In this document: positions 8,409-10,453 of the stretch, one piece after another
Layout of the letters: each line of letters opens with the position of its first letter
How positions within the stretch are numbered: position 1 is the first letter of the stretch
Origin: a virus
Lineage: Duplodnaviria; Heunggongvirae; Uroviricota; Caudoviricetes
Length of the DNA stretch: 20,498 bases
Strand: one strand, 5' to 3'
Virus record (IMG/VR): IMGVR_UViG_2877280126_000007
Made by a program: the position numbers and the translations under genes
Notes under the pieces: model-generated
Databases searched by the model: none
Told to the model about the DNA's origin: nothing
The model's input: only the letters and a program-made list of their open reading frames with translations

Positions 8409-8902
8409 TGCTGCCCCCACAAACAGACTTCACGCTCAATCTCACGACGGGTCATCAGCCCTTTCCATTGCTTACCGCCAGCATATGTCCAGCGACATAG
8501 CTGGTCACATGCGCCTTTGATATAGCCCTGGTTTATTTTGCGAAGAAGCGTCGATGTTCTGAAATTGCCAGCGCCCACGTTGTAAACGAACGAGTAAAGA
8601 GCGCCGCGCGTTGTTTCCGGTATATCGACTTTGATGTACGGGTTAATTTGTCTGGCGACAGTGGCAAGGTCTTTATTCAGGAGAGCTTTGCATTCTGCTT
8701 CGGTATACGTTTTACCAGGCATGATGTCTTTTCCGGTGTGTCCGTGACATACAGTCCATACACCAATGATATCTTTGTATAGTATGTAGCTGACACCTTC
8801 CAGACCATCGTTACCACCTGGGCCAGTGATTAACACAGATGCTATAGCAACAGCCCCGCCACCAATAGCAACTGCAACAGCCTTGCGTAATGATGGCGAC
8901 AT
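8405..8902 (-). CDS. SAR-endolysin (T4-lysozyme fold, phage 21 R / RrrD-like)
   Basis: 165-aa ORF with N-terminal signal-anchor-release segment ([23 protein letters not shown]) and a lysozyme core that closely matches E. coli RrrD/RrrQ as I recall them. Confidence 0.85.
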
Positions 8903-8919
8903 TATTCACCTCTCGCAGC

Positions 8920-8924
8920 CTTAC
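8920..8924. repeat. IS2 target-site duplication, left copy (CTTAC)
   Basis: Identical 5-mer abuts both IS2 ends. Confidence 0.85.
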
Positions 8925-9015
8925 TAGACTGGCCCCCTGAATCTCCAGACAACCAGTATCACTTAAATAAGTGATAGTCTTAATACTAGTTTTTAGACTA
9001 GTCATTGGAGTACAG

Positions 9016-9381
9016 ATGATTGATGTCTTAGGGCCGGAGAAACGCAGACGGCGTACCACACAGGAAAAGATCGCAATTGTTCAGCAGAGCTTTGAACCGG
9101 GGATGACGGTCTCCCTCGTTGCCCGGCAACATGGTGTAGCAGCCAGCCAGTTATTTCTCTGGCGTAAGCAATACCAGGAAGGAAGTCTTACTGCTGTCGC
9201 CGCCGGAGAACAGGTTGTTCCTGCCTCTGAACTTGCTGCCGCCATGAAGCAGATTAAAGAACTCCAGCGCCTGCTCGGCAAGAAAACGATGGAAAATGAA
9301 CTCCTCAAAGAAGCCGTTGAATATGGACGGGCAAAAAAGTGGATAGCGCACGCGCCCTTATTGCCCGGGGATGGGGAGTAA
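9016..9381 (+). CDS. insC: IS2 InsC (OrfA, HTH regulator / N-terminal transposase part)
   Basis: 121-aa [59 protein letters not shown]… matching IS2 OrfA. ATG at 9016. Confidence 0.9.
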
Positions 9382-10244
9382 GCTTAGTCAGCCGTTGTCT
9401 CCGGGTGTCGCGTGCGCAGTTGCACGTCATTCTCAGACGAACCGATGACTGGATGGATGGCCGCCGCAGTCGTCACACTGATGATACGGATGTGCTTCTC
9501 CGTATACACCATGTTATCGGAGAGCTGCCCACGTATGGTTATCGTCGGGTATGGGCGCTGCTTCGCAGACAGGCAGAACTTGATGGTATGCCTGCGATCA
9601 ATGCCAAACGTGTTTACCGGATCATGCGCCAGAATGCGCTGTTGCTTGAGCGAAAACCTGCTGTACCGCCATCGAAACGGGCACATACAGGCAGAGTGGC
9701 CGTGAAAGAAAGCAATCAGCGATGGTGCTCTGACGGGTTCGAGTTCTGCTGTGATAACGGAGAGAGACTGCGTGTCACGTTCGCGCTGGACTGCTGTGAT
9801 CGTGAGGCACTGCACTGGGCGGTGACTACCGGCGGCTTCAACAGTGAAACAGTACAGGACGTCATGCTGGGAGCGGTGGAACGCCGCTTCGGCAACGATC
9901 TTCCGTCGTCTCCAGTGGAGTGGCTGACGGATAATGGTTCATGCTACCGGGCTAATGAAACACGCCAGTTCGCCCGGATGTTGGGACTTGAACCGAAGAA
10001 CACGGCGGTGCGGAGTCCGGAGAGTAACGGAATAGCAGAGAGCTTCGTGAAAACGATAAAGCGTGACTACATCAGTATCATGCCCAAACCAGACGGGTTA
10101 ACGGCAGCAAAGAACCTTGCAGAGGCGTTCGAGCATTATAACGAATGGCATCCGCATAGTGCGCTGGGTTATCGCTCGCCACGGGAATATCTGCGGCAGC
10201 GGGCTTGTAATGGGTTAAGTGATAACAGATGTCTGGAAATATAG
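9339..10244 (+). CDS. insD: IS2 InsD (OrfB, DDE transposase catalytic domain)
   Basis: 301-aa ORF overlapping insC in the -1 frame, with DDE-integrase motifs (…WCSDGFEF…DNGSCY…ESNGIAESF…). Confidence 0.9.
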
Positions 10245-10453
10245 GGGCAAATCCACTTACGCTTATCTTCTCTTATTTTGAAATACAGATTCGTCAGATA
10301 AGTCAGAAGCCCCAGAAGCAGACTTCCCAGCACACCAATCGCAGCCCACTGTGATGGACTGACCTGATCCAACCACTGCAAAAACCAGTAGCCGGCACTG
10401 CCGGCGGAGGTGCCGTAGGCAATGCCTGTTGATATTTTTTCCATCTGATACAT
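10169..10453 (-). pseudogene. Phage-21-type pinholin (S21/EssD-like) with C-terminus replaced by IS2-derived sequence
   Basis: Native part 10256-10453 encodes [66 protein letters not shown] with the dual MxxM start. IS2 enters after codon 66 and the frame runs 28 aa into IS2. Removing IS2 plus one CTTAC restores …EDKRKAARGE-stop and the R start context. Confidence 0.8.
10256..10260. repeat. IS2 target-site duplication, right copy (CTTAC)
   Basis: Identical 5-mer abuts both IS2 ends. Confidence 0.85.

Follow-up and report, generated by a model that had tools for sequence, protein, structure and literature searches.

Results

An IS2 element lies in the pinholin gene of a defective prophage

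The DNA analysed here is a stretch of 20,498 nucleotides (IMG/VR record IMGVR_UViG_2877280126_000007; hereafter referred to as the window, to which all coordinates refer unless another record is named), which is a defective prophage of Shigella sonnei. It carries a lysis cassette of the phage-21/DLP12 type, consisting of the genes for a pinholin (S), a signal-arrest-release (SAR) endolysin (R) and the spanins Rz and Rz1. The gene order, S-R-Rz/Rz1, is the same in the window, in phage 21 (S21-R21-Rz-Rz1) and in DLP12 (essD-rrrD-rzpD/rzoD). In the window, a copy of the insertion sequence (IS) IS2 stands within the 3′ end of S, and it separates S from R, Rz and Rz1. The strands are opposed, with the lysis genes on the minus strand and the transposase genes of IS2 on the plus strand.

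The IS2 element, a member of the IS3 family, is full length (1331 bp) and occupies positions 8925–10255 on the plus strand, as identified from its identity to annotated IS2 copies, its open reading frames, its ends and its A6G motif. Thousands of E. coli records contain copies, annotated as 'IS3-like element IS2 family transposase', that cover query positions 1–1331 completely at 99.9% identity in unrelated flanks, and this fixes the assignment of the ends. Both transposase frames are intact: orfA starts at 9017 (open reading frame 8971/9017–9381) and overlaps orfB (9339–10244), with the −1 frameshift motif A6G (AAAAAAG) at 9333–9339. The left inverted repeat (IRL), at the 8925 end on the endolysin side, reads TAGACTGGCCCC...TATCACTTAA, and the right inverted repeat (IRR), at the 10255 end on the holin side, reads TGGATTTGCCCC...TATCACTTAA. 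The terminal repeats are imperfect, as expected of an IS2 member; the published ends comprise an IRR of 41 bp and an IRL of 42 bp (PMC3299598). In its length, ends, orfA/orfB with the A6G site and 5-bp target duplication, this copy is the same as IS2 of E. coli and Shigella, and nothing notable sets it apart.

The element is flanked by two copies of CTTAC, the left one at 8920–8924 and the right one at 10256–10260, and the junction sequences are GGGGCAAATCCA/CTTACGCTTATC and GCAGCCTTAC/TAGACTGG. Uninterrupted sites in E. coli VL40 contain a single CTTAC, and, in the BLAST alignment to one of the VL40 loci (L001), the two flanking segments have just these 5 bp in common. When IS2 and one CTTAC copy were removed from the sequence, the resulting 120-bp junction was 100% identical to that of four E. 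coli genomes (E = 2e-55), and the holin gene and rrrD were contiguous at the empty site in 1189 genomes. The insertion point lies 15 nt ahead of the original holin stop codon, and the insertion has placed R-Rz-Rz1 1336 bp farther from S. Thus, the first-pass annotation of this DNA was right about the perfect duplication, about the position 15 bp before the stop codon and about the 1.3 kb that now lie between S and R-Rz-Rz1. That annotation had also allowed that other IS2 ends might abolish the duplication; the 1–1331 match in unrelated flanks retains it.

The uninterrupted state is found in E. coli

The same prophage is present in E. coli VL40, FDAARGOS_944 and FDAARGOS_943. The first match encountered in VL40 (L001) was rejected as the orthologue, as it is a paralogous prophage with the lysis cassette alone in common; the true orthologue (L011) was located by a search with longer flanks. 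In a direct alignment, VL40 (NZ_CM177011.1, about 1.63 Mb) was 99.78% identical to window positions 1175–8924 over 7750 bp without indels, a region that holds head genes, the terminase, a DedA moron, Rz/Rz1 and R. The VL40 orthologue differs from the window in that its 71-amino-acid holin is uninterrupted and its portal gene intact, and in that it has tRNA genes and a Q gene collinear with the cassette. The uninterrupted S/R junctions of the IS2-free prophages in VL40 and FDAARGOS_944 confirm the earlier description of the event as a simple insertion.

The relationship of the holin gene to the two VL40 prophages differs from that of its neighbours. The 5′ part of the holin gene and the native DNA upstream of it (10256–10463 and 11912–12451) are 100% and 99.4% identical, respectively, to the paralogous prophage L001, whereas identity of the holin to that of the orthologue L011 is just 95%, its 5′ half being a different allele. 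By contrast, the head genes, R and Rz go with the orthologue L011. The switch of alleles inside the holin gene marks a mosaic boundary or a gene conversion.

IS2 replaces the C-terminal tail of the pinholin

Deletion of IS2 and one CTTAC restores a holin of 71 amino acids with the C-terminus ...EDKRKAARGE, identical to S21 of phage 21 at 66 of 71 positions. Both transmembrane domains, the Gly/Ala-rich, SAR-like TMD1 and TMD2, align to S21 without gaps. The dual-start motif, Met1 and Met4, is kept; the N-terminus reads MYQMEK here and MKSMDK in S21, so that Lys2 of the long (antiholin) form is missing. At the restored S/R junction (GAA-TAA-TG), the last base of the holin stop codon is also the first base of the endolysin ATG (TAATG), an arrangement common to the restored window, phage 21 and VL40. 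The first-pass annotation had correctly reconstructed the EDKRKAARGE end and a junction of the phage-21/DLP12 (essD-rrrD) type, but the 4-bp gap that it placed between the two genes is in fact this one-base overlap. The IS2 insertion broke it.

In its present state, the holin open reading frame (10169–10453, minus strand) encodes a chimera of 94 amino acids. Codons 1–66 (10256–10453) are native S21-type pinholin sequence, and codons 67–94 with the stop codon (10169–10255) come from the IRR end of IS2, in agreement with the 28 IS2 codons counted before. The Pfam profile PF04971, 'Bacteriophage P21 holin S', matches residues 5–66 at profile positions 1–62 of 64 (E = 1.7e-34), over its curated cut-off. 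The native C-terminal tail is no longer there: the last five native residues, AARGE, have been exchanged for 28 strongly basic residues encoded by IS2. The orphaned end of the gene, the five AARGE codons and TAA, remains at 8902–8919 (minus strand) on the other side of the element.

The basic character of the added tail would suit a cytoplasmic location. C-terminal truncations of S21-68 down to K56 remain pore-forming, and C-terminal fusions to the truncated form work (10.1101/2021.04.20.440580). Since the chimeric holin is native up to residue 63 in the S21-68 numbering, it would, if made, probably keep the ability to form pores.

Variants of the chimera are already present in public records. 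The exact 94-amino-acid protein is listed as 'lysis protein S [Shigella sonnei]', and a 91-amino-acid version of the same reading frame, starting from Met4, occurs on 234 contigs, complete chromosomes among them. In S. sonnei 53G (HE616528.1), which lacks the second element found at this locus (ISEc20; see below), the holin reading frame extends upstream and can be read as a 111-amino-acid protein.

The endolysin and spanin reading frames remain intact

The first-pass annotation had described the SAR endolysin, Rz and Rz1 reading frames as intact, and we found each of them uninterrupted, with the expected Pfam match. R (8405–8902, minus strand) encodes a 165-amino-acid endolysin of the R21/RrrD type (PF00959), identical to R21 of phage 21 at 154 of 165 positions; its best relatives of solved structure are RrrD (PDB 4zpu, E = 3e-104) and R21 (3hde, E = 2e-103). 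E35, D44 and T50, the Glu-Asp-Thr catalytic triad in the R21 numbering, are all present. Residues 8–26 align to the SAR domain of R21 with two conservative changes. A GAGG sequence at 8909–8912 lies within the 15 nt of leftover holin sequence next to R, and therefore the ribosome-binding site of the endolysin survived the insertion; in the phage 21 annotation, the corresponding site likewise falls inside S, 6–10 nt ahead of the start codon of R. Compared with VL40, R has three lineage-specific substitutions, P41L, D127Y and R136C. We do not claim that they inactivate the endolysin, as the finding that three of three changes are non-synonymous lacks statistical meaning and D127 is the sole one of the three positions that is conserved in distant GH24 lysozymes.

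Rz (7938–8408, minus strand; PF03245) encodes an inner-membrane spanin of 156 amino acids. Four substitutions, C18R, A60D, N74D and W91R, set it apart from its VL40 counterpart. The first of these lies in the N-terminal membrane segment, and the Arg found here, where relatives have Cys, is a caveat on that segment. Rz1 (7982–8188, minus strand; PF06085, E = 3.8e-21), the outer-membrane spanin of 68 amino acids with the lipobox VVGC, is encoded wholly within Rz in another frame. The Pfam matches, the embedding and the lipobox cysteine identify the pair as two-component embedded spanins. Compared with phage 21, Rz is identical at 99 of 156 positions, with a diverged C-terminal half, and Rz1 at 31 of 68. 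Of the 17 substitutions that distinguish the window from the VL40 orthologue, 8 are in the 965-bp R-Rz region, and seven of those eight alter residues of R or Rz; this could reflect relaxed constraint or a recombination patch.

The upstream region of S has been dismantled

The holin gene is bounded on its 5′ side by a second element, ISEc20 of the IS110 family (10464–11911, plus strand; 1448 bp), which is 99.9% identical to copies annotated as 'IS110-like element ISEc20' and matches PF01548 and PF02371. Its junctions, 10463/10464 and 11911/11912, were defined by comparison with VL40 and 53G. ISEc20 sits inside a run of ten G residues, 10 nt upstream of the holin ATG, without a target duplication, at the position of the S ribosome-binding site in phage 21. 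The holin gene is thereby reduced to a 208-bp island flanked by IS2 and ISEc20. A second ISEc20 copy, near iraM in E. coli 2-331 (L010, about 3028–4476), has poly-C on both flanks, which suggests that this sequence-guided IS family prefers poly-C targets.

Beyond ISEc20 lie, in this order, 540 bp of native DNA, an IS911 element and several copies of IS600. The native stretch (11912–12451, minus strand), once directly upstream of the holin gene and still contiguous with it in 53G, is 99.4% identical to L001 11261–11800. It contains a strong terminator-like hairpin at 11946–11972 (minus strand), with a 10-bp stem and a T run, which precedes the original start codon of the holin by about 50 nt. 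The hairpin is also kept in VL40 and 53G, and it implies that native holin expression relied on antitermination by Q. The native stretch is cut at 12452 by the IS911-type element of the IS3 family (12452–13698, plus strand, ends approximate), which was recognised by its open reading frames; it occupies the same site in 53G and sits between the cassette and the tRNA/Q region. Neither a gene for the Q antiterminator (DUF1133) nor a YbcO gene was found within the window, whereas both occur in 53G. Together with an inversion, IS911 and the copies of IS600 have detached the cassette from the Q/late-promoter region. The window does not have a late operon in which Q, the late promoter, S, R and Rz are collinear; in 53G, Q is collinear upstream of S, though IS911 intervenes.

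Expression of the lysis cassette

We scanned the region for sigma-70-like sites, scored by consensus matches out of 12, with a threshold of at least 9/12 and a relaxed threshold of 8/12. No site of at least 9/12 faced R or S on the minus strand. The relaxed scan yielded a single 8/12 match facing R (8983–8955, minus strand), which is at chance level, and no match facing the holin gene from ISEc20. Of the known promoters of IS2, PIRL reads inward, and Pjunc arises where IRL and IRR abut in the minicircle (PMC3299598). At the present locus, IRR points antisense into the holin gene, away from R. The outward −35 half of Pjunc lies in IRR and therefore faces the holin in antisense. The first-pass proposal that an outward promoter borne by IS2 might serve R is not supported, as only the weak 8/12 match faces R.

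Transcription from a late promoter would reach IS2 at its IRR end and proceed through the transposase genes in antisense, and, as the chimeric frame stops at 10169, about 1.27 kb of RNA would be untranslated before R. Rho-dependent polarity is well established, and polymerase modified by Q ignores terminators. Rho-dependent termination would be expected in the untranslated IS2 stretch unless the polymerase were Q-modified; such a polymerase may have been available in the 53G-type arrangement and is not plausible in the window. The lysis cassette of the present window is probably not expressed, since ISEc20 occupies the holin ribosome-binding region and no promoter-like site faces the holin gene. 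The earlier suggestion that IS2 probably uncouples lysis-gene expression is correct as to the separation of S from R, but IS2 is not decisive, given ISEc20, the lost Q and late promoter, and the two portal stop codons, which leave the prophage dead in any case.

The insertion is widespread in S. sonnei

In S. sonnei 53G, both IS2 junctions are at bases identical to those of the window, and the R and Rz proteins are identical. ISEc20 is absent from 53G, and IS2 is therefore older than ISEc20. The IS2 insertion is also older than the IS600-bounded inversion seen in the window (described below). Over positions 4169–10463, the window and 53G differ at seven positions, all within 9701–9800 of IS2, and the flanks are identical; this clustering suggests gene conversion by another IS2 variant.

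We surveyed the spread of the insertion by looking up the exact endolysin protein (the L41/Y127/C136 allele). IS2 was directly upstream of R in every one of the 27 long contigs read for this allele, which represent eight distinct contexts. In 690 of 852 index blocks, the longest contig was 5–10 kb, which fits the 7.75-kb interval from IS1 to IS2, because short-read assemblies would break at these two elements. From these sequences, the IS2 insertion appears to be fixed in S. sonnei as sampled. The event had earlier been called relatively recent, which holds in a relative sense only: it is common to 53G and all the long S. sonnei contigs read, predates ISEc20 and looks species-wide.

The filled IS2/holin junction (120 bp) had no full-length match in 5426 complete E. 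coli genomes, because the window is from Shigella, which that collection excludes. Likewise, the exact junction pattern gave no match in the GTDB contigs with one genome per species, as expected of a collection that counts Shigella as E. coli. Our literature search found no paper on an IS2 insertion in an S. sonnei prophage holin.

Two further S. sonnei records show variations at the same place. In GCA_013931855.2 (L026, CP179971.1), a copy of IS600 abuts IS2 at the point corresponding to position 10226 of the window. IS2 has lost its last 29 bp there, and the adjoining holin remnant is gone as well, which represents further decay at the same spot. In GCA_001253355.1, a short-read contig of 1.96 kb (L003, CXFC01000326.1) runs from the chimeric holin/IS2 end into another holin-endolysin junction (98–99% identity), which is intact. 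This join suggests either that S. sonnei also has a paralogous S-R cassette without an interruption or that the contig itself is a chimera.

Other lesions and neighbouring genes

The portal gene (3558–5024, minus strand) has, relative to VL40, two nonsense mutations, W59* and Q126* (nt 4849 and 4649). A first impression that it had been truncated by a deletion was ruled out, as the gene is full length with these two nonsense substitutions. The same mutations are present in 53G, where the fragments are called as proteins of 58, 54 and 360 amino acids. A copy of IS1 (407–1174) severs the remaining head/tail region. Given the two portal stop codons and the truncation of the head region by IS1, the prophage is unable to make particles, regardless of IS2.

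The segment 17210–19298, which carries QueH, hok/sok, Rem and a truncated DUF1367 gene, is inverted relative to 53G and is bounded by IS600 copies at about 15948–17211 and 19298–20498; judged from this arrangement, an inversion or deletion mediated by IS600 is likely. There are about nine IS copies in the 20-kb window. IS-driven pseudogenisation and rearrangement are documented in Shigella genomes (PMC8072062), and the interruption and rearrangement of this prophage by IS1, IS2, IS600, IS911 and ISEc20 are typical of that process, without a difference.

Between the small terminase gene and Rz, on the opposite strand, lies a gene for a DedA/VTT-domain membrane protein (7337–7849, plus strand). 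This moron-like gene is also conserved in VL40, whose copy differs by a single synonymous change. The inverted segment contains a full-length sok antitoxin RNA (18091–18266, plus strand; Rfam RF01794, 117 bits), which adjoins a hok/gef-family gene; it was the sole match of the Rfam scan and lies outside the IS2/holin locus.

Discussion

The observations described above are, with high probability, explained by a simple transposition of IS2 into S of a phage-21/DLP12-type cassette (pinholin S, SAR endolysin R and spanins Rz/Rz1), as one step in the decay of the prophage. In this explanation, the IS2 event itself was a plain copy-out/paste-in transposition. IS2 landed in the 3′ end of the pinholin gene, duplicated CTTAC, exchanged the tail of the protein and displaced R-Rz-Rz1, probably as one step in the decay that IS elements brought to a prophage no longer able to make particles. 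The older events include IS2, IS911 and the portal nonsense mutations, and the later ones ISEc20 and the IS600-bounded inversion.

Several points weigh against this view or limit it. The silence of the cassette is read from promoter scans, which are weak evidence. A 53G-type ancestor had Q upstream in the same orientation, and transcription of its cassette may have continued through IS911 and IS2. The frames of R, Rz and Rz1 are still open after two portal nonsense mutations, which could mean retained use or too little time. The apparent fixation draws on 27 long contigs and block statistics and not on a full lineage-by-lineage survey.

In a rival account, IS2, and later ISEc20, were selected because they lowered the lethal expression of a still inducible cassette in a prophage that had lost the ability to yield progeny. 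53G keeps Q collinear upstream of S, and the cassette may thus have been inducible when IS2 arrived; two independent IS elements have hit S, a gene of only 216 bp, or its ribosome-binding site, a third occurs at the same spot in GCA_013931855.2, and the IS2 insertion is in every long contig sampled. However, S. sonnei has hundreds of IS copies and fixes insertions by drift, and this window alone has about nine copies; the chimeric holin would probably still form pores; and R retains its own ribosome-binding site, which makes IS2 a poor means of disarmament. We regard such selection as unlikely. A composite idea is quite improbable: either an IS2-tailed pinholin (94 amino acids, or 91 from Met4) might be produced through read-through or cryptic promoters and depolarise the membrane or modulate an intact paralogous holin encoded at another place in the genome, or the repeated IS hits on the 216-bp gene might reflect selection that defuses a lethal cassette.

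The insertion might instead have brought a gain of function, with a promoter of IS2 or ISEc20 driving R-Rz-Rz1 or the chimeric holin independently of the late promoter; the tail-swapped pinholin would then have taken on a new role, perhaps that of a toxin that depolarises the membrane or of a release factor. IS2 can activate neighbouring genes through an outward −35 element, a weak promoter-like match faces R, and the R, Rz and Rz1 frames are all open; the architecture of Pjunc (PMC3299598) also speaks for this account. Against it, the scans gave no match of 9/12 or better toward R or S, and ISEc20 has none whatever directed at the holin. IRR, with the −35 half of Pjunc, points antisense into the holin and not toward R, and the private changes of R and Rz (among them the Arg in the Rz membrane segment and the Tyr at the conserved Asp) fit relaxed constraint. 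We regard a gain of function as very improbable. That IS2 was placed here by repeat mis-assembly is hardly conceivable: in several public short-read contigs (P0004, P0006, P0009 and L003), the joins at this element are indeed collapsed or chimeric, but the junctions are identical in many independent complete chromosomes, 53G and CP-numbered long-read assemblies among them, and the 5-bp duplication is perfect.

A simple IS2 transposition during prophage decay, the explanation that we prefer, involves no new mechanism or family, as IS2, S21-type pinholins, R21/RrrD endolysins, Rz/Rz1 and ISEc20 are all well characterised, and the insertion is already contained in annotated public S. sonnei genomes. 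It is routine IS-driven decay, in which IS2 is one of many lesions. The finding matters mainly for annotation, as it documents, with the events ordered, the stepwise dismantling of the lysis cassette of an S. sonnei cryptic prophage. The S. sonnei entries of 91–111 amino acids named 'lysis protein S' or 'class II holin' are IS2 read-through chimeras and not natural variants of the holin. The junctions are also possible lineage markers, with the IS2 junction present in all the S. sonnei contigs sampled and the ISEc20 junction missing from 53G-type genomes.

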